Source: a virus. From it: DNA of 36,810 nucleotides. The notes under the pieces are model-generated. The model searched no databases. It had not been told where the DNA came from and was given only the letters and a program-made list of their open reading frames with translations. Shown here piece after piece: positions 1 to 36,810 of this stretch. Every line of letters begins with the position of its first letter. Position 1 is the first letter of the stretch. Made by a program: the position numbers and the translations under genes. The stretch lies in the IMG/VR virus record IMGVR_UViG_3300022214_000003; one strand, written 5' to 3'.

Positions 1-127
1 GACGCTGGCATATATGCGCAGGAGAGTGCAGACATTGCGGCCGATGTGCGGGAGTGGGCCATTGCTCATGGGGATGACCCCATGCTACGAATTGTGCTGT
101 GTGGCTACGAGGGGGAACACATTATGC
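1..127. repeat. Terminal direct repeat, copy 1 (identical to 36684-36810)
   Basis: I compared the two copies base by base and they match at 127/127. This length is what a k=127 assembly overlap of a circular molecule would give, or a short terminal redundancy. Confidence 0.97.
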
Positions 128-2072: not shown

Positions 2073-2432
2073 TTAGCATCCCTCATCAACGCCTATCTCC
2101 TCCACACGATGTCCGCAGCGTGGACAAAATGTCACCCCATCTCCTGCGGGCGAGCCAATGAGGTTGTGTATTTGCCCACATGCGGTGGTCCATTCGCCGG
2201 ACGCGATGTCAGTCACCCGCCATTCACATGGCATCTCTGAGACTCTTCTGGAGTCGTGCAACAGGGCCGTTTTGCAAGCTAGCTTGGCTCCGTGGGTTTC
2301 TGCCAGGGTCACATCTAGCAGGCGCCGCAGGTGGGCGTAGTGCGCAAAAATCTTCCCTTCATCGCTCCCGACATTGGCCCAGGACGCTGTGAGCCGCCGG
2401 TGTAGTTCTTGCCCTGCGTTGCTATCTGTCAT
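2073..2432 (-). CDS. Hypothetical two-module protein (N-terminal MTDSNAG module plus C-terminal zinc-ribbon module)
   Basis: I chose the start at 2432 because the RBS and first 8 codons duplicate those of gene 2422-2673. The 148-aa track ORF extends further upstream. Confidence 0.55.
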   Translation of the reverse strand: MTDSNAGQELHRRLTASWANVGSDEGKIFAHYAHLRRLLDVTLAETHGAKLACKTALLHDSRRVSEMPCEWRVTDIASGEWTTACGQIHNLIGSPAGDGVTFCPRCGHRVEEIGVDEGC

Positions 2433-2673
2433 GCCCTTCTCCCTGTAACGCCTGATGCCCCTTATCAGTAAGGCGGTACGTGGACGTCCGGTGCTGTTGG
2501 CTGCGCTCCAATAGCCCATGATTAACTAGCGACTTTGCCGTAACGGTCTCGACATGAGGGCGCCAGTCACGATATTGTGCCCAATCCCCAATAGCTGCAA
2601 ACCACTGTAGTGCCCTCTTCTGGGTGGCTGTGAGCCGCTGATGTCGTTCGTGCCCTGCGTTGCTATCTGTCAT
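2422..2673 (-). CDS. Small winged-helix-like DNA-binding protein (N-terminal MTDSNAG module)
   Basis: LVNHGLLERS..TYRLTDKG resembles a wHTH recognition helix plus wing. An ATGA overlap links it to the upstream tmk-like gene. Confidence 0.5.
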   Translation of the reverse strand: MTDSNAGHERHQRLTATQKRALQWFAAIGDWAQYRDWRPHVETVTAKSLVNHGLLERSQQHRTSTYRLTDKGHQALQGEGHDR

Positions 2674-3323
2674 GTCTTTCTCCCTTGCTCCAAGCGACTC
2701 ACGATCTGAGAGTGGATGGCATCGGCTGGCTGGTCGCCATCCAGTACGTGATAGTTGCGCTGGCTCTGGATGCGCAGGTACGCAGTCCTTACAGCTTGCT
2801 GGCGGGCCAGATCATAGTCTATGGCGTCATTGCCTTGGCGTCCGGCGAGGCGCTTCGCGGCCACCTCGGGGCTAATGTCCAGCAGGAAGATGCGGTCTGG
2901 GGCTCTCCCGATTACGGCCCACCCCCACCACAGGGGGAACGCTTCACGGTCGGCGCGGTCCATCTGGGATACCTGGTAGGCCAGGGTGCTCAGCCAGCCG
3001 CGTACCCAAATGACATGCACGCTGGGGCGACGTGTCCAGCGTGCCTGCATCTCGACCATGATTTGCCTCATCAATGCCAGATGCAAGAGGGCTTCGGTTG
3101 CGTTGTCGTGGGGCTGGTCCATATACGGGTCAGGCTGCCGCGTTGCCCGCAATGCCTCACGGATTTTGTTGATAATAAATGGCGTATCTTCTGCATACCT
3201 TTGCAGCCATGGGAAGTCCAACACGCGCACCGCCTCCCCTCGCTCCTGCCAGTAGGCTGCGAGCATGTCCGCCTGCGTGTCCTTCCCTGCGCCGTCAGGG
3301 CCTTCAAGAAGTACAAAGGTCAT
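2670..3323 (-). CDS. tmk: Thymidylate kinase-like nucleoside monophosphate kinase
   Basis: P-loop LLEGPDGAGKDTQ. The core LSTLAYQ and the lid-like RLAGRQGNDAIDYD are present. The DR(Y/H) motif is replaced by VRGW. Confidence 0.7.
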   Translation of the reverse strand: MTFVLLEGPDGAGKDTQADMLAAYWQERGEAVRVLDFPWLQRYAEDTPFIINKIREALRATRQPDPYMDQPHDNATEALLHLALMRQIMVEMQARWTRRPSVHVIWVRGWLSTLAYQVSQMDRADREAFPLWWGWAVIGRAPDRIFLLDISPEVAAKRLAGRQGNDAIDYDLARQQAVRTAYLRIQSQRNYHVLDGDQPADAIHSQIVSRLEQGRKT

Positions 3324-3577
3324 GCGCCTACCTCCTCTTGCCTATAATCGTCAATGACCTTGGCTGCGGTCATCTCTCCCGCTATGCCCACTAGCGCCAG
3401 GCGGACCGTCTCTTGTATCTCCCGATGAAAGGCCACCACGGCGGCATGATCGTTGCGGGCCGCCTCGATGAGTTCCCCAGGCATCAGCGGCTTGCCTGGC
3501 TCCGGGGGCGGGCGGTGATTGCGCTGCAACCAGGCGGTGAGGATATGCCCGATCAAGGCTTGCTGCGTAGGGGTCAT
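3320..3577 (-). CDS. Hypothetical protein
   Basis: The ATG at 3577 forms an ATGA overlap with the stop of 3574-3807. The track ORF extends to 3619. Confidence 0.5.
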   Translation of the reverse strand: MTPTQQALIGHILTAWLQRNHRPPPEPGKPLMPGELIEAARNDHAAVVAFHREIQETVRLALVGIAGEMTAAKVIDDYRQEEVGA

Positions 3578-3807
3578 GGCTTCCCCTCCTCCCTGCAATG
3601 CAGGGAACAGCCTGTCCACACTGCCGCTACGCGTTGATCAATACGGGGACAATATCCCCAGGTCTGGGCCTGGCTACGATAGGAGGCGCATGTGCTGCAT
3701 GGCTGGCGCAGGGGATTAGCCGAGCCGTAGCAGGTAATGCACGGCTCCGGGGTGTAGCGCACCATCTGGCATTTAGAGCATTGATAGGTCACGGGGGTGA
3801 ACGTCAT
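3574..3807 (-). CDS. Cys-rich (multi CxxC) zinc-binding protein
   Basis: CSKC..CITC..CSTC..C..C motifs are present. ATGA coupling occurs at both ends. Confidence 0.55.
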   Translation of the reverse strand: MTFTPVTYQCSKCQMVRYTPEPCITCYGSANPLRQPCSTCASYRSQAQTWGYCPRIDQRVAAVWTGCSLHCREEGKP

Positions 3808-4313
3808 AGCTCAAACATCTCCTTGCTGTCTCGATATTCGCGCTCTAGCGCGTCTTCCATCTGGTATCGTGCCTCGATAGGCTCCCACTCTGCGAGGTAT
3901 TGCGCCAATACCTCTTTGTCGCGCTGCAACTGTGTGCAGAGTTCGCAATCCCATTGCCGCTGTATGCCGTCCGTAGCACGGGCAAACGCTAGGCGGTCAT
4001 CCCCACATAGCGCAATGGTAGCGTGGGGCGTCCCATAGTGGCGGTACTCGTCCCACTCTCCACCCTGCCCCCGTGTGGAATAACTAGCGGCCAGGATCTC
4101 TGCAATGAATGTGGGCAGTAGTTCTGCCGGAAGGAAAAACCGTAGGTTGCCTTTACTTCGTCCCGACACATCGTCACGGATGAAGAACAGCTTGCGGTAG
4201 CGCTGGCGGCGGAATGAGTTATAGAACTTCTTCTCCGCCTGCTCACGTGGCCATCCAGTTGCCTGGCTTAACGCATCAATGATTTGCCCGCGTGCTAGTA
4301 GCGTCTCATCCAT
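3804..4313 (-). CDS. Hypothetical protein
   Basis: I chose the start MDETLL at 4313, just downstream of the stop of 4319-4813. No domain was recognised. Confidence 0.5.
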   Translation of the reverse strand: MDETLLARGQIIDALSQATGWPREQAEKKFYNSFRRQRYRKLFFIRDDVSGRSKGNLRFFLPAELLPTFIAEILAASYSTRGQGGEWDEYRHYGTPHATIALCGDDRLAFARATDGIQRQWDCELCTQLQRDKEVLAQYLAEWEPIEARYQMEDALEREYRDSKEMFEL

Positions 4314-4318
4314 ATGGC

Positions 4319-4813
4319 TTACCCCACATGATAGCGGCGCAGACCGCCATGGTACCAATGGATCAACTCGTCAATATGGTAGGCATAGCGGGCGGCTGCC
4401 TTGGCCTCTAGTTCTGCCCTGGCTTCCGTCAACGCGGTCTCTAGGCGTCGGGGGACTTTAGCACCATACTTGCCCTCGGCCATGGTCTCTGCGATAACTT
4501 CTGCGGCCTGCTCGGCAGGATAATAATAATGGCGCCCGATGCGGCGCCAGGCTTCTTGGACTGGCCAAGAATAAAGGGACTTATACAACATATCGCGGAT
4601 GCGCTTCGAGGCGTCAAAGCGCAAGGCGCCGGGGTACTCTACTACGATGCGATCTGCTAGCTCTGCCACGCTCACCAGCCCCTCCTGGAGGGGAATGCGG
4701 GATACTCTATTGTTGGAACAGTCCTGGCAGAACTTGCGCCGCTTCACTTGGACGGGGCGCTTGCAGGCTTGGCACGGGGGCATCTGTTCTAATAGGCTGT
4801 AGGTCTGCGGCAT
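4319..4813 (-). CDS. Hypothetical protein with N-terminal CxxC..CxxC zinc ribbon
   Basis: The N-terminus contains PPCQACKRPVQVKRRKFCQDC. It is preceded by a 152-nt structured intergenic region. Confidence 0.55.
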   Translation of the reverse strand: MPQTYSLLEQMPPCQACKRPVQVKRRKFCQDCSNNRVSRIPLQEGLVSVAELADRIVVEYPGALRFDASKRIRDMLYKSLYSWPVQEAWRRIGRHYYYPAEQAAEVIAETMAEGKYGAKVPRRLETALTEARAELEAKAAARYAYHIDELIHWYHGGLRRYHVG

Positions 4814-4950
4814 ATCCTGGGCCTTCTCTCCCCTTTGTTGTTGTTACCCCTGGGGAGGGGCCTGTCTGACCTCTCGGCCACCAATCAAGACGCTATGGGC
4901 GATAGGCTTGTGGATGCCGGAGAACCCTCCCCAGGAGCCCTACGGCACAC

Positions 4951-4972
4951 GCCGTAGAGATGGTGCTAGGCG
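4951..4972. repeat. 22-bp direct repeat, copy 1 (GCCGTAGAGATGGTGCTAGGCG)
   Basis: Exact match to 5544-5565. It contains the stop codon of gene 4966-5532. Confidence 0.95.
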
Positions 4973-5532
4973 CATTTCCTGGCCAAATCAATGAGCCACG
5001 AACAAAACGCCGGAGGCGTTAGTTCACGCTCCTGTTTTGAGGGGTGCTTTTGCCCTGTCAGGAGTCGCGCCGACTTAGAAGCAATCACTTTCTCTGGCTC
5101 TCCCATGCAATAAGGGACGGGGGGAATGTTTGATGGCGCGCATCCTACAACGTAGAGCCAAGTCGCTTTGCGGGCGACATGCCCCCACCATTGTTGAGGC
5201 ACGCTCATGGTCCACCCGCCCCATTTATCCCTAGCCCTTGTTCCGGGCCGTGGTAAGCTCAGCGCCTCCCACAACCTGGAATAAGCCGGATGCTCTACGA
5301 CGCCACCCCAACGCCTTGCCTGCTCAATTGCCCATACTGCATAGGCTTTTTCGATGCGCGGTGCGGTGGAAAAATACCGCAGGCGTGACCACAGTCTGCA
5401 AGGCGGATGTGCTATGATTGGCGTACCTCCTGGCCATTGGAGGGCATTCCGTTCCGCGTCCCATACATCTACGCCAGGCACCCCCTTATAATGGCTCTCA
5501 TTATGGGCAAAAAGTACTGCTACCAACTGCAT
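4966..5532 (-). CDS. C5-cytosine-methyltransferase-like protein lacking a recognisable AdoMet motif I
   Basis: IIAHPPCRLWS resembles motif IV (PPCQxFS). GGVVEHPAYS resembles motif VI (ENV). GHVARKATWLYVVG resembles motif VIII (QxRxR). LTPPAFCSWLIDL resembles motif X. The N-terminus reads VAVLFAHNES where FxGxG would be expected. Confidence 0.5.
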   Translation of the reverse strand: MQLVAVLFAHNESHYKGVPGVDVWDAERNALQWPGGTPIIAHPPCRLWSRLRYFSTAPRIEKAYAVWAIEQARRWGGVVEHPAYSRLWEALSLPRPGTRARDKWGGWTMSVPQQWWGHVARKATWLYVVGCAPSNIPPVPYCMGEPEKVIASKSARLLTGQKHPSKQERELTPPAFCSWLIDLARKCA

Positions 5533-5543
5533 GAGACTTCCCT

Positions 5544-5565
5544 GCCGTAGAGATGGTGCTAGGCG
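5544..5565. repeat. 22-bp direct repeat, copy 2
   Basis: Exact match to 4951-4972. It contains the stop codon of gene 5559-5858. Confidence 0.95.
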
Positions 5566-5858
5566 GCTATCAGGCCAGCCGCTTTCAGTTCTGCACGAGA
5601 CAGCAGCCTATGCCGATACTCCACAGGCACATCTCCAGCCTGATACGTCATGACTTCGCCGCCTGGGTTGATGCCAAGAGCCCAGGTAGAACACTGCGCA
5701 TGCACGGGGCCTGGGGCCTCCACGATGGCAACGCCTAAAAATTGCTGACCTCGCGGCTTGTCGGGATCACAGAACGACAGCCACCACAACCGCCCTGGCT
5801 TGCCTCTCTCGGCCAGCAGCAACTCTGCCAATCGTTCCTGGGCCTTTTGTGTGTCCAT
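5559..5858 (-). CDS. Hypothetical protein
   Basis: The start MDTQKAQ at 5858 is preceded by a GGGAGGG SD. It overlaps the stop of the nuclease gene by 1 nt (TGATG). Confidence 0.5.
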   Translation of the reverse strand: MDTQKAQERLAELLLAERGKPGRLWWLSFCDPDKPRGQQFLGVAIVEAPGPVHAQCSTWALGINPGGEVMTYQAGDVPVEYRHRLLSRAELKAAGLIAA

Positions 5859-6439
5859 CACAATCCCTCCCATATTAACCACTGTTCCCCCCAGGGCAAC
5901 CGCGAGCGCAACGGTGCCGGGTGCATCACCTGGAACCTATACAGGGCGCCATACGCTTGAGCGGCCAGGCGCACCTTGGCCTGATCCCCTCGGCGGAAGT
6001 AGGGCATGGGCTTGCCGTCGCTCAATGTGGTGCCCTTAATCTCAATGGCCACAGGCGCCGCGCCTCGTAGCTGTGCAATAAAGTCTGGCGTATAACTTAC
6101 CTTGGGGCCTAGCCGCAAGACGAAGGGCTCGTACGCCCACCACCCGACCATGCCGAGCTTTACGCCATCTTGCAGCCACTCGCCGAAGTGTTTCTCTGTC
6201 TCCGATCGGCAGCGGCTCAGGTCTTGCAGCCATGGCCCCACATGCGCATACGCTGTGGGCTCTAGCCCCTCCCCTGCTGCAGCACTCCGCTGCGCGATCT
6301 CTTTGCGTAGCGTCTGGGCATTGCGCTGTAGGCACACCTCGCAGTCCACAAGCTCGATGACTGGCGTGGCACGGTCAAAATGCTGGGCGCCACAGCGCAC
6401 GTCAGGGCTTGCAAGGCTGAGCAGGTGATGGGTCAGCAT
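5858..6439 (-). CDS. PD-(D/E)xK nuclease (DUF1064/VRR-NUC-like; candidate resolvase or recombination nuclease)
   Basis: SYTPDF..(11 aa)..IEIKG is a D..ExK signature. The N-terminal part is Cys-containing. Confidence 0.6.
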   Translation of the reverse strand: MLTHHLLSLASPDVRCGAQHFDRATPVIELVDCEVCLQRNAQTLRKEIAQRSAAAGEGLEPTAYAHVGPWLQDLSRCRSETEKHFGEWLQDGVKLGMVGWWAYEPFVLRLGPKVSYTPDFIAQLRGAAPVAIEIKGTTLSDGKPMPYFRRGDQAKVRLAAQAYGALYRFQVMHPAPLRSRLPWGEQWLIWEGL

Positions 6440-6640
6440 GTACCCCCCCGTATCGCGTTGTACCGTATTGCATCGTACCGTAACCCCTCCCCACGACAGC
6501 GCTGCGCCAGGCTGGCCTACTACGAGCGCATGGCGTGCCTGCCTGGCATCCCTCGCCTTATCCTTGCCATACTACGAGAGGTGCTGCGCTGTTTCTTGCC
6601 CTGCTGCTTTCATGCCGGGGCGCAGGGGAGGGGCGTATAT

Positions 6641-7036
6641 TTAGATCATGACGGTCTTTCTGGGGCTCACCTCTCCCACAATCCAGCGCTCCCATGCCTC
6701 TACCCAGTCCGCCACCTGACCCCGCACCTCCTCTAGCGGCGTTTCGTCGCCATAGCTCATGTGCTTGGCGCTTGAGGGCATGGCGTAGCGGCATTGCTGC
6801 AGCGATAGCCCATGCTCATGCAGCCGTCGCATGATATGCCTGCTGGCGGCCAGGGCCAACAGGTAGCGCAGATGTTGCCGGATGAGCCCTTGCGCAACCT
6901 CGCCCTGGATCTTGTCGCGGGGCGTGATGTGCACGGCACGATGGTCGCTACTGAGCGTCAGGGCTACCTCATGGCGGTCAAGCCATCCGGCGAATATTGG
7001 CGCGGGCATGGTGGCGTATAGTGGCTCATGCTCCAT
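6641..7036 (-). CDS. Hypothetical protein
   Basis: A GGGGGAG SD is present. No domain was recognised. Confidence 0.5.
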   Translation of the reverse strand: MEHEPLYATMPAPIFAGWLDRHEVALTLSSDHRAVHITPRDKIQGEVAQGLIRQHLRYLLALAASRHIMRRLHEHGLSLQQCRYAMPSSAKHMSYGDETPLEEVRGQVADWVEAWERWIVGEVSPRKTVMI

Positions 7037-7056
7037 GGCTCCCCCTTAGCCCTAAT

Positions 7057-7362
7057 CTATCCGGCAAGATTTAGGTTGTCGGCGATCTCTGCAGCTTTTG
7101 CAACTGCGGCGTCCGAGGCATAGCTAAGTTCCTCGAACCCTGAGACGCTGTAGCCGATGAGTTGGGCGAATTGCTCCCGATCCGCGTCTGAAAACGGAAT
7201 TCTTGCCAATCTGTTCATGTCGTTTGGCCCGTCATCAAGGAGAAAGCGGACAATGGCATTTACACGGAACCGCGCTACGCCTTTATCGTCAAGGTAAATT
7301 TCTTGCATCGGATGAGGCATGTCATTGTCGGCGCCTCTTTTTGCGTTCCCTGGGAGTTCCAT
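7057..7362 (-). CDS. Hypothetical protein immediately downstream of recT
   Basis: The ATG at 7362 lies 1 nt after the recT stop. The track ORF extends to 7386. Confidence 0.5.
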   Translation of the reverse strand: MELPGNAKRGADNDMPHPMQEIYLDDKGVARFRVNAIVRFLLDDGPNDMNRLARIPFSDADREQFAQLIGYSVSGFEELSYASDAAVAKAAEIADNLNLAG

Positions 7363-7363
7363 C

Positions 7364-8182
7364 CTAGTATGCCTCCCCATCCCCATCTACAGGCACGACA
7401 ACGGGCGCAGCGGTGACGGGCGGCGGGTCATCCCCGAACAAATCACTGGCCGCTTGGCGGGCTCGCTCGGCTCCAGGTTCCCAGGCTTCCTCTTCTGAGG
7501 CATCATCCTGCGCAAGGCTGTCTAGTTCCTCCCTGGAGAGGGGGCTATACTTGGCAGTATTCTTCAGGACCGTCTTACGCCACATCTCATACTCATGTAG
7601 CACCCAGGTGTCTTGCTCTCGGCCTGGGGCACGCTTGCGCACCCTGTCAATGTCCTCCCTGTCCATGTAGTGCACTTGCCAGGTGCCGTTCTTCAGCACG
7701 ATGGCCCCATAGGCACCGATCCCTCTACCTCGATTGCGCAGGGCTGGCACATGGCGAACAGGCTTGCGCTCATCTCCATAATCAATCTCACAGGTATCGT
7801 TCTCATAGACGACCTCAGCAAAGGCTTTGCGGACCTGGCGAGAACGCTGCAGGATCTTAATGATCCCTCGATAGTCTTTGATATACACAGCGTCCTTGCC
7901 ATGCGCGACAAGGTAGCAATCCGTCCCAAGCTCTAACCCATCCCTGGCAGCGCTATAAATCCCTTGGATAATCGACCGCTCGCTACAATTGCGCAGCTTG
8001 CCTTGCTGCTCGGCCAAAAAGTACAGGGCCAGATTGAGGAAGCGTTCGGCAGGCAGGCTACTAAGTACAGCCTGCGGGAGGATGCTCCCAATCCTCTCGG
8101 CCTGAGACATCAGAGTGGACTTTGCGCGATCATAGAACGTCAGGGCATTCTGAGGCTGTGGAGATTGTGTTGTCATGCTCAT
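7364..8182 (-). CDS. recT: RecT-family single-strand annealing recombinase
   Basis: The pattern CYLVAHGKDAVYIKDYRGIIKILQRS..VVYENDTCEIDYG..H..RGRGIGAYGAIV..MDREDIDRVRKRA..W..MWRKTVLKN matches the RecT core. The start forms an ATGA overlap with the RHH gene stop. Confidence 0.8.
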   Translation of the reverse strand: MSMTTQSPQPQNALTFYDRAKSTLMSQAERIGSILPQAVLSSLPAERFLNLALYFLAEQQGKLRNCSERSIIQGIYSAARDGLELGTDCYLVAHGKDAVYIKDYRGIIKILQRSRQVRKAFAEVVYENDTCEIDYGDERKPVRHVPALRNRGRGIGAYGAIVLKNGTWQVHYMDREDIDRVRKRAPGREQDTWVLHEYEMWRKTVLKNTAKYSPLSREELDSLAQDDASEEEAWEPGAERARQAASDLFGDDPPPVTAAPVVVPVDGDGEAY

Positions 8183-8373
8183 TTCCCTTTCATGATGGCC
8201 TGGCATTTCCTTTGCCGCTGGGCTTCATCCCTCTCCCACTTGGCAAACAAAGCGTCGAGCGCTTGCCGGATGATTTCCGACTTGCTTATGTTGCGTTCCT
8301 GTGCATATCGCTCAAGCAGCGCAGAATGCTCTAGCGCTAGCGACACGCCATGGGTCTGCTTATTTATGGCCAT
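8179..8373 (-). CDS. Ribbon-helix-helix (CopG/Arc-like) DNA-binding protein
   Basis: HGVSLALEHSALLERYAQERNISKSEIIRQALDALF fits the RHH beta-alpha-alpha pattern. An AAGGAGG SD is present. Confidence 0.65.
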   Translation of the reverse strand: MAINKQTHGVSLALEHSALLERYAQERNISKSEIIRQALDALFAKWERDEAQRQRKCQAIMKGK

Positions 8374-8671: not shown

Positions 8672-8860
8672 ATGAAAACAAAAAAGCCTCAGACAAAAAT
8701 CACCTGGCGAGTCCCGGTTGATCTCCTGGCCACCCTGCGTATCCTTGCGGAAGAAGAGGAACGCTCTGTCAATGCCCAGGCCATTGTGGCCCTGACTCAG
8801 TGGCTCAAGGCAACAAACTCTGAGAACGCCCAACAATGGAAGGACCCCTCGCATGTCTGA
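8672..8860 (+). CDS. Ribbon-helix-helix DNA-binding protein
   Basis: An AAGGAG SD lies 5 nt upstream of the ATG. KITWRVPVDLLATLRILAEEEERSVNAQAIVALTQWL fits the RHH pattern. Confidence 0.65.
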   Translation: MKTKKPQTKITWRVPVDLLATLRILAEEEERSVNAQAIVALTQWLKATNSENAQQWKDPSHV

Positions 8861-10628
8861 TCTTGACTTAAGTAGGATTGCTCAACAGTGCGAGGGATGC
8901 CACCAGGACAAGGCCGGATGGCGGGCAAAATGCCCACTACACCAGGGCCAAAGCGATACATCCCTGCATCTCTGGGAAGAAAATGGGGAAATACGGCTGC
9001 ATTGCTTTGCCGGGTGCCAGGCAAGAGATATCCTTGCTTGGCTCAATGTAGAAACCCCTAAGCGCTCTCAAGACCCCACTTATGATGCCATTTATAGCTA
9101 CCACGACGAACGCGGGGTGTTGCAGTATCAAGTAGTGCGGCTTCCTGGGAAAAAGTTCCGCCAGCGTCGCCCCGATCCTAAGCAGCCAGGGAGATGGGTT
9201 TGGAATATGGAGGGCGCCCCGCCTCTCCTCTATCGCCTGCCGGAAGTCGCCCAGGCTATCGTATTACGCCAGCCCATCTATCTGGTAGAGGGAGAAAAGG
9301 ATGTCGAGACATTACGGGCGTTGGGGTTTGTGGCTACGTGCAACCGGGGCGGGGCGCTTAAGTGGGATGATGCCTATACCGCACAGCTTACTGGCGCCGA
9401 TGTCGTGTTACTACCTGATAACGATGAGCCAGGACGCAAACACGCAACCATGGTGCTCTCTCGGCTGCGTGGGGCTGTTCGCAATCTGGTGCGGATTGAC
9501 CTCCCAGGGTTGCCGGACCATGGCGATGTTTCCGACTGGCTAGCCCAGGGCCACACAAGGGAGGAGGTTGAAGCCCTCTACAAAGCCACGCCGCCTGCGC
9601 TCTCTTCCCCCCATCTAGTTGTTTCGCGCTTCGCCGACATCCCACCCGAAGATATCGAATGGCTATGGCGGCCCTATCTAGCCAAAGGGAAAATCACGAT
9701 CCTGGAGGGCGATCCGGGGCAAGGAAAAACCTACTTCATGCTGGCCCTTGCCGCTTCCCTGACGCAAGGCTTTACCCTCCCTGACCAACGCGGGCGACCT
9801 GGCCCCCCTGGTGAATCCCCACCGCAAAACATCCTCTATGTTTCCGCCGAAGACGGCCTTGCCGATACCCTTGTTCCCCGTGCGATCAAAGCCGGTGCCG
9901 ATTTGACCAGGCTCTATGGCGTGCGAGGGGTGGAAGTGGATGGCGATTTGCAGCCATTCACGCTGGCTCAAATCTCTATGCTCTCTGAGGCCGTCCATGA
10001 TCTGCAGGCACAACTCGTTATCATCGACCCTATCCAGGCATTTTTAGGCGCTGACGTTGACATGCACCGGGCGAACGAGGTTCGCCCACTTATGGCGGCG
10101 CTCGCTCGCCTGGCCGAAGTCCACAAATGCTCTGTGCTCATTATCCGCCACATCAATAAGTCGCTAGGCGGCAAAGCCCTCTATCGCGGCATGGGGTCGA
10201 TTGACTTCACGGCAGCGGCACGAAGCGTCCTGGTTGTGGCTGAATCTCTGGAAGACCCCTCCAAGAAAATCATTGCGCAGGCCAAGAACAGCTACGCCCC
10301 GTTGGGCGCCTCGCTCATTTTCTCCATTACAGAGGATGGCTTTGCATGGTGTGGTGTGGCGAAAATATCAGCCGATGAACTGGTTGGGCAACAACCGGCA
10401 AAGCATCAGCATCAAAGAGTAGCTGCGGCAGAGTGGCTGGTAGAATGCCTCAAGGACGGGGAATTGCCCGCAAATACCATCCGCCAAGAGGCGGAAGCGA
10501 ACGGCATCGCGTGGAGGACAATCGAGAGGGCTAAGCAAGAGATGCGGGTTATCTCCTTCAAAAAACTAGACTTATGGTATTGGAAACTCCCCCCTCTCCA
10601 AGAAGAAGAAGAAAACACCCCCTTTTAA
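8853..10628 (+). CDS. Bifunctional zinc-finger/TOPRIM primase fused to a RepA/DnaB-like (AAA_25-type) ATPase
   Basis: Zinc motif CPLHQG..LHCFAGC. TOPRIM motifs YLVEGEKD and LLPDNDEPGRKHA. Walker A GDPGQGKT and Walker B LVIIDP. Confidence 0.8.
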   Translation: MSDLDLSRIAQQCEGCHQDKAGWRAKCPLHQGQSDTSLHLWEENGEIRLHCFAGCQARDILAWLNVETPKRSQDPTYDAIYSYHDERGVLQYQVVRLPGKKFRQRRPDPKQPGRWVWNMEGAPPLLYRLPEVAQAIVLRQPIYLVEGEKDVETLRALGFVATCNRGGALKWDDAYTAQLTGADVVLLPDNDEPGRKHATMVLSRLRGAVRNLVRIDLPGLPDHGDVSDWLAQGHTREEVEALYKATPPALSSPHLVVSRFADIPPEDIEWLWRPYLAKGKITILEGDPGQGKTYFMLALAASLTQGFTLPDQRGRPGPPGESPPQNILYVSAEDGLADTLVPRAIKAGADLTRLYGVRGVEVDGDLQPFTLAQISMLSEAVHDLQAQLVIIDPIQAFLGADVDMHRANEVRPLMAALARLAEVHKCSVLIIRHINKSLGGKALYRGMGSIDFTAAARSVLVVAESLEDPSKKIIAQAKNSYAPLGASLIFSITEDGFAWCGVAKISADELVGQQPAKHQHQRVAAAEWLVECLKDGELPANTIRQEAEANGIAWRTIERAKQEMRVISFKKLDLWYWKLPPLQEEEENTPF

Positions 10629-10631
10629 TTT

Positions 10632-10824
10632 TTGGCGGTCTTGGCGGTCTTGGCGGTGTGTGGCGATGTTGGCGGACTTGGCGGTGTTGTGAAAATACTT
10701 GCAAGTCCGCCACCTTGGCGATGTTGGCAAGACCGCCAAAAATTAGAAAAAGTGGCGGTCTTAATAATCCTCTATTATTCAACAGGTTATAGCCAAAAAT
10801 GGCCAAGTCCGCCAAGTCCGCCAG
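10632..10824. repeat. Iteron cluster with AT-rich core: candidate origin of replication
   Basis: Six tandem 9-10-bp units TTGGCGG(T/A)(C/G) occupy 10632-10686. Further direct and inverted copies lie at 10705-10713, 10715-10723, 10724-10739, 10752-10760 and 10803-10824. An AT-rich stretch spans about 10737-10800. Confidence 0.65.
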
Positions 10825-35939: not shown

Positions 35940-36810
35940 ATGCAGCCGCTGCGCGCTCCATTCCCCTGGTTTGGCGGGAAATCCCGCGCCGCCGATCTTA
36001 TCTGGCAAGCCCTCGGCGATGTGCCGCACTATATTGAGCCATTCGCAGGCTCACTAGGCGCACTCCTGGCACGACCGCATGCGCCGCATGTCGAAACGAT
36101 CAATGACAAAGATGCGTATATTTGCAACGTGTGGCGAGCGCTAGAGGCTGATCCTGATGCGGTTGCACGGTGGGCAGACTGGCCGGTCAATGAGAGCGAC
36201 CTGCATGCCAGGCACGCTTGGCTGCGCCGTAGAGAGGGCATCCTGCGCGAACGTGTAGAGGGTGATCCTTTCTACTACGACGCGCAGATTGCCGGGTGGT
36301 GGCTGTGGGGTATCTCGGCATGGATAGGCAGCGGGTGGTGCGATGCCAATACCGTAGGGCCATGGGTGGTGAGCATGGACAATGATGGCTACCCCGTGCT
36401 GCGGCGAGAGAATGCAGGCATGGGCGTCAGGCGCAAACTCCCGCACCTTTGGGGTCCAGGCAAGGGCGTCAATCGCAAGCGGCCGCACCTTAGCAGGCCG
36501 GGCATGGGAGTTTCATCGATTGACAGGCCAGGCCTCCCAGTCTATTTCCGCGACCTACAGGCGCGCTTGCGTGGCATCCGGGTATGCTGTGGGGATTGGC
36601 AACGCATCCTGGGGCCGACAGTCCTGCAAGCCAGCGGCATGGCCGGGGTGCTGCTTGACCCGCCCTATAGCCATGAGTTGCGAGACGCTGGCATATATGC
36701 GCAGGAGAGTGCAGACATTGCGGCCGATGTGCGGGAGTGGGCCATTGCTCATGGGGATGACCCCATGCTACGAATTGTGCTGTGTGGCTACGAGGGGGAA
36801 CACATTATGC
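35940..36810 (+). CDS. DNA N6-adenine methyltransferase (Dam-like, alpha group), N-terminal part; open at the window end and continues at 128-279
   Basis: My own translation from ATG 35940 gives FPWFGGK, EPFAGSLG (motif I) and LLDPPYS (motif IV). The full gene is 340 aa on the circle. It is missing from the ORF track because it has no stop inside the window. Confidence 0.8.
   Translation, partial: MQPLRAPFPWFGGKSRAADLIWQALGDVPHYIEPFAGSLGALLARPHAPHVETINDKDAYICNVWRALEADPDAVARWADWPVNESDLHARHAWLRRREGILRERVEGDPFYYDAQIAGWWLWGISAWIGSGWCDANTVGPWVVSMDNDGYPVLRRENAGMGVRRKLPHLWGPGKGVNRKRPHLSRPGMGVSSIDRPGLPVYFRDLQARLRGIRVCCGDWQRILGPTVLQASGMAGVLLDPPYSHELRDAGIYAQESADIAADVREWAIAHGDDPMLRIVLCGYEGEHIM
36684..36810. 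repeat. Terminal direct repeat, copy 2 (identical to 1-127)
   Basis: Same comparison as for copy 1. Confidence 0.97.

Follow-up and report, generated by a model that had tools for sequence, protein, structure and literature searches.

A short phage protein with a predicted DNA C5-methyltransferase fold, encoded between exact 22-bp direct repeats

The locus and its 22-bp direct repeat

We analysed a window of 36,810 nucleotides, virus record IMGVR_UViG_3300022214_000003, numbered on the strand presented. In its early operon a gene for a 188-aa methylase-like protein lies directly after a gene for a 99-aa protein, and two exact copies of a 22-bp sequence mark its boundaries. The features of the locus, with the basis of each, are:

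4814–4965, minus strand: intergenic region of 152 nt from the methylase-like gene to the next gene (4319–4813) (ORF coordinates)
4938–4959, minus strand: hairpin CUCUACGGC-GUGU-GCCGUAGGG (sequence; 8-bp stem in both the MFE and centroid folds)
4951–4972, no strand: repeat copy 1, the duplicate, at the methylase-like gene's 3' end (exact match)
4966–5532, minus strand: 188-aa methylase-like gene of the phrog_12600 family, pI 9.7 (ORF; phrog_12600, E 7.8e-64; AF2; Foldseek)
4969–5019, minus strand: T172-P173-P...C187-A188, C-terminal helix, motif X-like TPPxxAxWL (conservation, model)
5029–5142, minus strand: residues 131–168, variable segment of 38 aa at the position of the target-recognition domain (TRD) (column entropy, length range)
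5152–5196, minus strand: Q113...G117-H118...K122-x-T124...Y127, motif VIII-like (PQ, then basic residues and a strand) (conservation, model)
5287–5307, minus strand: G76-G77-V-V-E80-H81-P82, motif VI-like (ENV equivalent), strand beta5 (conservation, model)
5398–5409, minus strand: H42-P43-P44-C45, motif IV-like catalytic loop with putative nucleophile Cys45 (conservation, hhalign)
5494–5514, minus strand: LFAHNES, codons 7–13, at the position of motif I FxGxG (translation, DSSP of the model)
5533–5543, minus strand: AGGGAAGTCTC, Shine-Dalgarno-like sequence (putative role) with spacer, linking repeat copy 2 to the ATG (sequence)
5544–5565, no strand: repeat copy 2, the native one, in the 99-aa gene's 3' flank (exact match, relatives' flanks)
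5559–5858, minus strand: upstream 99-aa gene, phrog_13485, unknown function, with its 3' flank duplicated (ORF, phrog match); 99 aa from the ATG, or 107 aa from an upstream GTG (5882)

The 22-mer GCCGTAGAGATGGTGCTAGGCG occurs exactly twice on the plus strand of the window, 593 bp from start to start, and the two copies bracket exactly one gene. Each contains CTA, the minus-strand TAG, which serves as the stop codon of the methylase-like gene in copy 1 and of the 99-aa gene in copy 2, confirming the arrangement described in an earlier note on this DNA. Copy 1 also holds the last codon (Ala188) of the methylase-like gene, and the 593-bp insert begins, at its 5' end, with the AGGGAAGTCTC segment. 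We found no third copy in the 36.7 kb of the window, even with 3 mismatches allowed, and no match to the 22-mer in 100 dinucleotide-preserving shuffles; it was also absent from IMG/VR and from the JGI metagenome collection. Six contigs, taken from separate sample accessions, show the identical repeat-gene arrangement and differ by one SNP overall, so an assembly artefact is excluded.

We identified five distinct relatives of the 99-aa gene, and the methylase-like gene is absent downstream of all five. Four of these have CGCCTAACA, or a close variant of it, after the stop codon; this sequence is homologous to the minus-strand start of copy 2, CGCCTAGCAC, and corresponds to the first 9–10 nt of the repeat. 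Because the repeat's first 10 nt stand directly after the stop in relatives without the insert, we take copy 1 to be the duplicate. The gap behind the 99-aa homologue is 125–280 nt at three of the five loci and 51 and 67 nt at the other two, comparable to the 152 nt behind the methylase-like gene. We read the repeat as the likely scar of an insertion, since its sequence belongs natively to the target and the relatives lack the insert; this comparison was made at 54–65% protein identity rather than at a DNA-level empty site.

The search for an empty site advised in the earlier note thus returned the five relatives and, in the collections searched, no closely related sibling phage whose site is empty. 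Querying 50,697 phage records by blastn with positions 3500–7500 gave no match, and the 164-aa and 193-aa neighbour proteins had no relatives in IMG/VR. Exact look-ups of neighbour proteins led only to the same clonal phage, always with the methylase-like gene. The empty junction is predicted to read CCCTACGGCACAC-GCCGTAGAGATGGTGCTAGGCG-GCTATCAGGCC.

We propose that the gene arrived as a 593-bp single-gene insertion directly after the 99-aa gene, and that this event would have duplicated 22 bp of the 3' flank of that gene. The inserted gene now takes its final codon and its stop codon from the duplicate. Short-homology recombination between the two copies could in turn remove the gene precisely; the phage encodes RecT, 2 kb from the methylase-like gene. 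At phage mosaic joints, recombinases of the Rad52/RecT type act on short, diverged homologies. The locus resembles such joints in having a single accessory gene, short direct repeats at gene boundaries, RecT 2 kb away, and a second junction repeat, which brackets another single gene in the same operon. It departs from mosaic and cassette systems in that no recombinase adjoins it and other copies of the gene lack the repeat, and a duplication of 22 bp exceeds the usual length of a target-site duplication. No integrase or transposase gene lies beside the 188-aa gene in this phage, and no flanking repeat was found at nine other family loci, where the longest shared boundary word is 6–10 nt; an integron- or transposon-like mobile cassette was rejected on these two grounds. 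The earlier suggestion of a cassette or recombination footprint therefore holds as a single-gene insertion, based on the relatives without insert and the native start of the 22-mer, but not as a cassette signature shared by the family. At 0.57–0.59, the GC content of the inserted gene equals that of its flanks, with no foreign-DNA signature. Such a scar would cleanly illustrate how one accessory gene can enter a phage early operon and take its stop codon from the duplicated target.

We consider it improbable that the repeat is instead a functional cis element of which selection has preserved two copies, such as a gene-end site for RNA processing or binding. Both copies do lie where a gene ends and are oriented alike relative to the transcript, and the first 9–10 nt are conserved directly after the stop of the 99-aa family even at ~60% protein identity. 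Against this, the 36.7 kb hold two copies only, even with 3 mismatches allowed, the nine other family loci lack a flanking repeat, and identity at 22 of 22 positions beside unrelated flanks points to recent duplication. Nor is the 9-mer core of the repeat enriched (23 observed against 16 +/- 3.7 expected), which led us to reject a general gene-end motif as well. The copies share no RNA structure (fold z-scores of -1.2 and +0.2, both insignificant), and copy 1 alone completes a hairpin: its last 9 nt form the 5' arm, whereas copy 2 ends exactly at the arm/loop boundary without a partner arm. The hairpin at 4938–4959 has no T run and was for that reason rejected as a canonical intrinsic terminator. 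Terminator-like sites number five against 1.7 expected, none of them overlapping either copy, and no promoter-like site was found at the repeat.

Motifs and predicted fold of the 188-aa protein

All five peptides that the earlier note had likened to C5-methyltransferase (MTase) motifs are present in the 188-aa translation: LFAHNES (7–13), HPPCRLWS (42–49), VVEHP (78–82), GHVARKATWLY (117–127) and TPPAFCSWL (172–180). We measured conservation across 88 family representatives, one per 50%-identity cluster, and found P43, P44, C45, G77, E80 and P82 conserved in 100% of them, H42 in 98% and H81 in 94%. The Pro-Cys nucleophile of motif IV is present as HPPC (42–45), and hhalign places this segment on SPPCQ of PF00145 proteins. 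In the motif VI-like segment, E80-H81-P82 stands at a strand end and His replaces the canonical Asn in 94% of members; judged by collinearity and fold rather than by residue-level superposition, E80 would be the catalytic Glu.

The motif VIII-like region has PQ113, then H118 and K122, then a strand, and lacks the canonical Arg pair; we infer its register against QxRxR. Conservation here is 99% for Q113, 98% for G117, 91% for H118, 99% for K122 and 98% for Y127. Among the 88 representatives, near-invariant His thus replaces the canonical G/F of motif IV, N of motif VI and R of motif VIII. The motif X-like segment is conserved at T172 (93%), P173 (92%) and L180 (94%), the motif X Asn (GN) is missing in the 188-aa protein, and the tail beyond Cys187 is 1 aa long versus a family median of 4. 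Residues 131–168 have the highest column entropy of the family (2.5–3.5 bits) and the segment ranges from 23 to 49 aa among members, in line with the very short target-recognition region called earlier. To our knowledge, this 38-aa equivalent is far smaller than the TRD of any characterised C5 MTase.

At the N terminus, L7 (97%), F/Y8 (88%), S13 (90%), Y15 (97%), an acidic residue at D25 (89%) and Arg28 (97%) are conserved in the family. No GxG occurs at the motif I position in any of the 88 representatives, and the N-terminal extensions of 34 longer members likewise have none, so that the earlier observation of a catalytic-type Cys without FxGxG extends to the family, with Cys and Glu invariant.

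An AF2 model of the protein has a pLDDT of 96.4 and a pTM of 0.92. The 50 Foldseek matches listed against the PDB are all C5 DNA MTases (M.HaeIII, DNMT1, DNMT3A/B, M.HhaI), M.HaeIII matching at E 9.5e-4 and probability 0.99, and these 50 include no other Rossmann methylase, no Dnmt2 and no unrelated fold. TMq values against the PDB are modest (0.43–0.47); the best viral matches are proteins of 210–255 aa with TMq of 0.53–0.61, one named 'putative cytosine methyltransferase' and the three best unnamed. On the strength of this model, the protein is predicted to have the three-dimensional fold of C5 MTases, as the earlier note had supposed from its motifs.

DSSP assigns strands to residues 4–7, 21–24, 77–82, 107–112 and 123–129 of the model and the C-terminal helix to 174–187. 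No helix lies between strands 4–7 and 21–24, where a canonical reference model has helix A, and the cofactor half also has one strand (of beta2/beta3) fewer than that reference. An ordered loop of residues 8–20 replaces the Gly loop and helix A, with LFAHNES spanning the end of beta1 and the start of the loop. The claim that the protein cannot bind AdoMet in the usual way is not supported: F8 aligns with the motif I Phe, D25 follows a beta strand as in motifs II/III, and the expected cofactor site has conserved residues in S13, Y15 and R28.

The family and its known relatives

Neither the 188-aa protein nor its 88 homologues matched any Pfam or NCBIfam model, and PF00145 missed all 88 even at E values up to 10. 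The protein matches phrog_12600, a family of unknown function, over nearly its full length (residues 1–186 on profile positions 1–193 of 203; E 7.8e-64), as do all 88 aligned homologues, and 19 of the 88 weakly match phrog_757 'DNA methyltransferase' (best E 2e-6). Phmmer and two profile searches against PDB sequences returned nothing relevant. In hhalign comparisons of family profiles with M.HhaI, a 50-sequence PF00145 subfamily and P087 gp15, the PPC segment alone was aligned, at a probability below 10%. PADLOC defence-system models gave no match. The family is an annotation gap, without a Pfam model and, where annotated, called 'DNA methylase' from remote homology alone.

The family comprises ~2,300 clusters at 50% identity and occurs in tailed phages, microviruses, inoviruses and prophages, with at least 580 loci in IMG/VR; the prophages are from Proteobacteria, Verrucomicrobiota, Acidobacteriota and Bacteroidota. 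Its gene is present in microviruses of 4.8–6.6 kb and in an 11 kb inovirus. Across 78 IMG/VR loci we found no recurrent neighbour, the largest neighbour cluster reaching 8 of 78, and the microvirus genomes inspected (Ebor and Tortoise microvirus 37) have no annotated candidate partner gene. Some members are fusion proteins, with a complete Dam-type MTase in P0250 and P0263 and with ParB_N in P0261, and one homologue adjoins an N6_N4 MTase gene. In the present phage, the Tmk-like kinase and Dam-like MTase genes noted before are both real: the former (2670–3323, PF02223) is in the same operon as the methylase-like gene, and the latter, a weak match to PF02086, runs across the window ends.

Canonical C5 MTases (PF00145; M.HhaI, M.HaeIII) share with the 188-aa protein the fold found by Foldseek and, in collinear order, the Pro-Cys loop, the motif VI Glu, a putative PQ-plus-basic motif VIII and a variable segment before the C-terminal helix. 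They are 320 aa or more in length, whereas the 188-aa protein is without FxGxG, helix A, one strand of the AdoMet half and the motif X GN. It also has EHP for ENV, HPPC for GFPC and a TRD equivalent of 23–49 aa across the family, and falls below every Pfam threshold. Structural neighbours are found among the short phage 'DNA methyltransferases' of phrog_757/phrog_2882, such as Lactococcus phage P087 gp15 (212 aa). The latter carries NPPC, ENP and, as a degenerate motif I, LFDDGNQS, but has ~25 more residues before PPC, the segment to which the hhalign match is confined.

Our literature search found no characterised member and no SAM-less C5-MTase-like phage protein; its yield was limited to the Ebor annotation, general remarks on the methyltransferases of microviruses, and CmoX. 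Gp8 of the Rhodobacter microvirus Ebor was annotated as a 'putative DNA methylase' by HHpred, and 5mC made up 1.58% of cytosine calls in Ebor DNA, with no methylation attributed to Gp8 by the authors (PMC11980548). Gp8 belongs to the same family (tblastn E 1e-17 to the 188-aa protein; phrog_12600 E 2.4e-39) and shares the LF..S.Y, AHPPC, GGVLEHP and ERE.TP motifs, although it has 33% identity, 163 aa, an ssDNA phage as its source and a putative function. CmoX, a phage DNA cytosine C5-carboxymethyltransferase, uses carboxy-SAM and selects this cofactor through an Arg (PMC12783734). It resembles our protein as a phage C5-MTase homologue and indicates that the fold can transfer groups other than methyl; unlike our protein it is full-size, makes canonical adenine/ribose contacts (Phe25, Glu47, Asp69) and needs a co-encoded CmoA (PMC12783734). 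There is no CmoA here.

Candidate function

We give about an even chance to the full reading that the 188-aa protein is a stand-alone minimal modifier of cytosine with the DNA C5-MTase fold, carried in a 593-bp single-gene insertion. A stand-alone DNA cytosine-C5 modifying enzyme with a putative methyl donor is the most likely function; its substrate, chemistry and cofactor are read from fold and motifs. The base-activating half appears to be kept: Cys45 in the PPC loop would act as nucleophile on C6 and Glu80 would protonate N3, and the Gln/His/Lys cluster at the motif VIII position and the short hypervariable segment at the TRD position also seem to be retained. The cofactor half is remodelled in the model, with an ordered loop bearing Ser13, Tyr15, Asp25 and Arg28 in place of the Gly-rich loop and helix A. 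Together these would allow modification of cytosine C5 in phage DNA by covalent catalysis, in the simplest case methylation with AdoMet held in a non-canonical pocket, and the purpose may be escape from host restriction. We count the basic pI of 9.7, the Dam and ParB_N fusions and the Dam-like MTase of the phage as support for DNA modification. On the other side stand the lack of any PF00145 match, the empty profile searches of PDB sequences, the hhalign matches confined to PPC, the modest TM-scores, the loss or replacement of most canonical AdoMet-contacting elements, the low 5mC in Ebor DNA and the small TRD equivalent.

A broader proposal, which we regard as unlikely, is that phrog_12600 as a whole is a minimal, cofactor-remodelled cytosine-C5 enzyme of ~180 residues that works without a partner in ssDNA and dsDNA phages, and that either makes a modification other than AdoMet-derived 5mC or binds AdoMet in a mode new among methyltransferases. 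If true, the family would be the smallest self-sufficient DNA base-modifying enzyme of the C5-MTase fold. A methylating enzyme would define a minimal architecture for flipping and methylating cytosine, useful for enzyme engineering; a non-methylating one would point to a novel DNA modification in phages or to a novel role for the fold.

Covalent chemistry at cytosine C5/C6 without AdoMet, or with another donor, is a comparably unlikely alternative; it could take the form of carboxy-SAM use, aldehyde addition, removal of a C5 substituent, or deamination via a 5,6-dihydro intermediate. In that case the role of His42, His81 and His118 would be to alter the pocket or to coordinate a metal. The loss of the Gly loop, helix A and one cofactor-half strand throughout the family is consistent with this, as are the near-invariant His at the canonical G/F, N and R positions and the low 5mC in Ebor DNA (PMC11980548). 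Arg28 is 97% conserved within the remodelled region, and in CmoX an Arg selects the cofactor (PMC12783734). However, we found no gene for CmoA or other donor synthesis near the 188-aa gene or recurrent in the 78 loci, and the tiny microviruses that carry the gene have no room for a pathway. The Dam fusion and MTase adjacency fit ordinary methylation modules, and F8 and D25 match AdoMet-contacting positions.

The preferred enzyme would act on duplex DNA; that it acts instead on RNA (tRNA, as Dnmt2 does), on ssDNA, or on free deoxycytidylate subsequently phosphorylated by the Tmk-like kinase is very unlikely in our estimate. The very small TRD equivalent, the occurrence of the family in ssDNA phages and the presence of the kinase gene in the same operon would suit such a substrate, but the Tmk-like gene is not recurrent beside family members in the 78 loci, the structural neighbours are DNA MTases with no Dnmt2 among the 50 PDB matches listed, and the fusions join the family to the DNA-acting domains Dam and ParB_N.

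Least credible are a DNA binder without catalytic activity and one half of a split methyltransferase, both raised in the earlier note and both in keeping with the lack of the canonical cofactor motif and of most of the TRD. A pseudoenzyme or anti-restriction decoy is unlikely because conservation is 100% at Cys45, at Glu80 and at the prolines around them in a family of ~2,300 clusters, which also led us to reject a dead MTase of the DNMT3L type. A split enzyme was rejected in view of the 78 loci, which have no co-occurring partner gene, of the 4.8–6.6 kb microviruses, in which the gene occurs alone and of which Ebor and Tortoise microvirus 37 have no annotated candidate partner, and of the upstream 99-aa gene, which occurs without the methylase-like gene in all its relatives.

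The enclosed gene and its 22-bp repeat

The 22-mer GCCGTAGAGATGGTGCTAGGCG occurs exactly twice in the window, and, as the earlier note had observed, the two copies enclose exactly one gene:

4951-4972, direct repeat, copy 1
4966-5532, minus strand, gene for the 188-aa protein
5544-5565, direct repeat, copy 2
5559-5858, minus strand, upstream gene, 99 aa by the calls of public assemblies (phrog_13485)

No third copy was found in the window, even with up to three mismatches, and the 22-mer occurred in none of 100 shuffles. Read on the minus strand it is CGCC-TAG-CACCATCTCTACGGC, and its TAG terminates the 188-aa gene in copy 1 and the 99-aa gene in copy 2. Six contigs from separate sample accessions each carry both copies and are identical except for one SNP.

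We compared this arrangement with the closest relatives of the 99-aa gene, which are 54-65% identical. In all five distinct contexts the methylase-like gene is absent downstream, and the intergenic DNA 3' of the relative is 125-280 nt long in three of them, the remaining two having gaps of 51 and 67 nt. Four of these contexts have a TGA stop followed directly by CGCCTAACA, CGCCCAACG or TGTCTAACG. In an alignment of the repeat with the relatives' 3' flanks (A4), this sequence is the homologue of the repeat's opening 10 nt, CGCCTAGCAC. A 9-nt stretch, CGCCTAACA or a variant close to it, lies right after the stop of the 99-aa family in four records:

L186, 2002-2010
L188, 2426-2434
L190, 3363-3371
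L191, 1947-1955

It is kept in phages that share only ~60% protein identity. In the window, a 1-nt deletion removed the TGA, and the 99-aa ORF therefore reads on for two codons to the TAG that lies within the motif. Copy 2 stands where it is native, and copy 1 is the duplicate; the methylase-like ORF now takes its Ala188 and stop codon from copy 1, and its tail beyond Cys187 is one residue compared to a family median of four.

This pattern is probably what remains after a 593-bp segment with a single gene was inserted and 22 bp of the target were duplicated. The earlier note had already put forward a single-gene insertion as one reading, and it is well supported by relatives that lack the insert and have the native start of the repeat after their stop. 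Copy 1 runs into a hairpin, CUCUACGGC-GUGU-GCCGUAGGG, whereas copy 2 does not; copy 2 ends at the exact arm/loop boundary of the hairpin completed by copy 1. The insertion could have arisen by single crossover of a circular intermediate, by template switching at the hairpin, or by annealing via the phage RecT (encoded at 7364-8206). We consider it improbable that the repeat is a functional motif rather than an insertion scar: no RNA structure common to both copies was found, and the 9-mer core of the repeat is not enriched across the genome. At nine other family loci examined there were no flanking repeats (longest shared word 6-10 nt), and the 188-aa gene shows no GC anomaly.

The early operon also contains a second junction repeat, 59 nt long:

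2386-2444 and 2627-2685, repeat copies, 90% identity, 241 bp apart
2422-2673, minus strand, 83-aa gene
2073-2432, minus strand, 119-aa gene

Each copy comprises a Shine-Dalgarno sequence, ATG and the first 17 codons (MTDSNAG(H/Q)E..RLTA) of these adjacent, otherwise unrelated genes, and the pair encloses exactly one gene, that of 83 aa. The phage lineage therefore seems to recombine repeatedly at gene junctions.

Predicted fold and active site of the 188-aa protein

Sequence profiles alone did not reach a C5-methyltransferase-like assignment. The protein has no Pfam or NCBIfam match. It matches phrog_12600, whose function is unknown, over its full length (E 7.8e-64), and has a borderline match to phrog_757, 'DNA methyltransferase', which 19 of the 88 homologues reach (best E 2e-6). 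An AlphaFold2 model built with 88 homologues was very confident (pLDDT 96.4, pTM 0.92), and the 50 listed Foldseek hits in the PDB were C5 DNA methyltransferases only, including M.HaeIII, DNMT1, DNMT3A/B, M.HhaI, ZMET2, DIM2 and MET1 (probability up to 0.99, TMq 0.43-0.47). Among viral models the best matches were proteins of 210-255 aa (TMq 0.53-0.61), of which one was named 'putative cytosine methyltransferase' and the three best had no name. These matches to the predicted model support a C5-methyltransferase-like fold, an assignment already proposed for one family member, Ebor Gp8, on the basis of HHpred (PMC11980548).

The peptide strings quoted in the earlier note are all present in the translation. 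Among 88 representatives of 50%-identity clusters, P43, P44, C45, G77, E80 and P82 are invariant, H42, G76, S85, L87, Q113, G117, K122 and Y127 show 98% conservation or more, and L7, Y15 and R28 reach 97%, followed by S13 (90%) and D25 (89%). The Pro-Cys loop, motif VI Glu and a PQ-plus-basic segment like motif VIII are thus conserved and collinear, suggesting that the base-activating half of a C5-methyltransferase site is intact. Residues 131-168, at the place expected for a target-recognition domain, vary most, both in sequence and in length (23-49 aa). With a pI of 9.7, the protein is basic.

The cofactor half differs. Before the PPC the model has a strand (4-7), an ordered, helix-free loop (8-20) and strands at 21-24 and 39-41. 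A short, canonical PF00145 protein run through the same modelling pipeline has, ahead of SPPC, a strand, helix A, two strands, a short helix and a further strand; from the first strand to PPC it spans 64 residues, compared with 39 in the window protein. FxGxG is absent in 151 representatives, 34 of which are longer and lack it in their N-terminal extensions as well, and the five GxG strings among them are there by chance. The lack of motif I therefore holds for the whole family. That the protein cannot bind AdoMet, as had been supposed, does not follow: F8 lines up with the adenine-stacking Phe of motif I, a strand is followed by an acidic residue as in motifs II/III, and polar S13, Y15 and R28 are conserved at the exact site expected for the cofactor. 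For comparison, CmoX uses Phe25, Glu47 and Asp69 (PMC12783734). Lactococcus phage P087 gp15 (record L019, 11474-12112; 212 aa, annotated 'DNA methyltransferase') retains NPPC and ENP and reads LFDDGNQS in place of a canonical FxGxG. Short phage C5-methyltransferase-like proteins may thus commonly have a degenerate motif I.

From the model, we predict that the 188-aa protein is structurally derived from C5 DNA methyltransferases and works like them, although by their defining tests it lacks motif I and stays below the Pfam threshold. We give about an even chance to a putative stand-alone DNA cytosine-C5 modifying enzyme, in its simplest form a methylase that would bind AdoMet in a non-canonical pocket. 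Nanopore calls for Ebor, the only related data, gave 1.58% 5mC, and the authors could assign no methylation to Gp8 (PMC11980548). Another chemistry or a different cofactor, for which CmoX is a precedent, is unlikely, and nothing in the present evidence requires new chemistry. A substrate of a different class is less likely again, and a pseudoenzyme or split enzyme is the least probable reading.

Family distribution and genomic context

The phrog_12600 family is large, without annotation and structurally unusual. It comprises 1,337 clusters at 90% identity and 2,302 at 50% identity (E up to 1e-3), with at least 580 loci in IMG/VR. One strict pattern found it in 162 species genomes, chiefly Beta- and Gammaproteobacteria and including Verrucomicrobiota, Acidobacteriota, Bacteroidota, Omnitrophota and Planctomycetota. 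Isolated carriers include the Mu-like Pseudomonas phages Doze, Frizzy, Meadow and Meltemi, Pseudomonas phage Persinger, Caulobacter phages Jess A and RapA, and Xanthomonas inovirus fSU1; microvirus carriers include Ebor, Tortoise microvirus 37 and a Ciona-associated microvirus.

Neighbour clustering over 78 IMG/VR loci yielded no recurrent partner gene (largest cluster, 8 loci), and in microviruses of 4.8-6.6 kb only capsid, pilot and replication genes accompany the family gene. We reject a split enzyme on these two grounds, and the protein must act by itself or together with host factors. Often the gene sits immediately upstream of a replication initiator, as in Ebor, Tortoise microvirus 37 and fSU1, or of a primase, as in Jess A; in Persinger it follows ParB-like genes. 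That of one representative, P0021, adjoins an N6_N4 methyltransferase just before the terminase gene. Three representatives outside the window are fusions: P0250 and P0263 carry a complete N-terminal Dam-type N6-adenine methyltransferase (EPFAG..., DPPY) followed by the family domain, and in P0261 the family domain precedes ParB_N and a long C-terminal region. Such fusions and neighbours are typical of phage DNA-modification modules.

In L010, from a distant relative of the phage, a canonical short C5 methyltransferase (3739-4656; PF00145; DLFCGLGG, SPPCQ, ENV) lies 2.5 kb downstream of a relative of the 99-aa gene; its subfamily has >8,000 members.

Other features of the phage genome

The first 127 bp of the window (1-127) recur exactly at its end (36684-36810). 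The assembly is therefore either closed into a circle or overlaps at its termini, and one genome unit measures 36,683 bp. Direct TTGGCGGTC-type repeats cluster at 10624-10694 and have inverted partners at 10728-10748 and 10802-10823; this region (10624-10823) sits at, and immediately beyond, the 3' end of an AAA_25 (RepA/DnaB-like) gene (8853-10628) and looks like an iteron-type replication origin. The Tmk-like protein (2670-3323, PF02223) weakly matches the PADLOC candidate-defence models PDC-M51B (E 2.5e-6) and VakA (E 2e-4). The Dam-like methylase (340 aa, spanning 35940 to 279) adjoins, as seen via contig L004, a Bro-N protein (260 aa) and a stand-alone response-regulator receiver protein (Response_reg, 161 aa).
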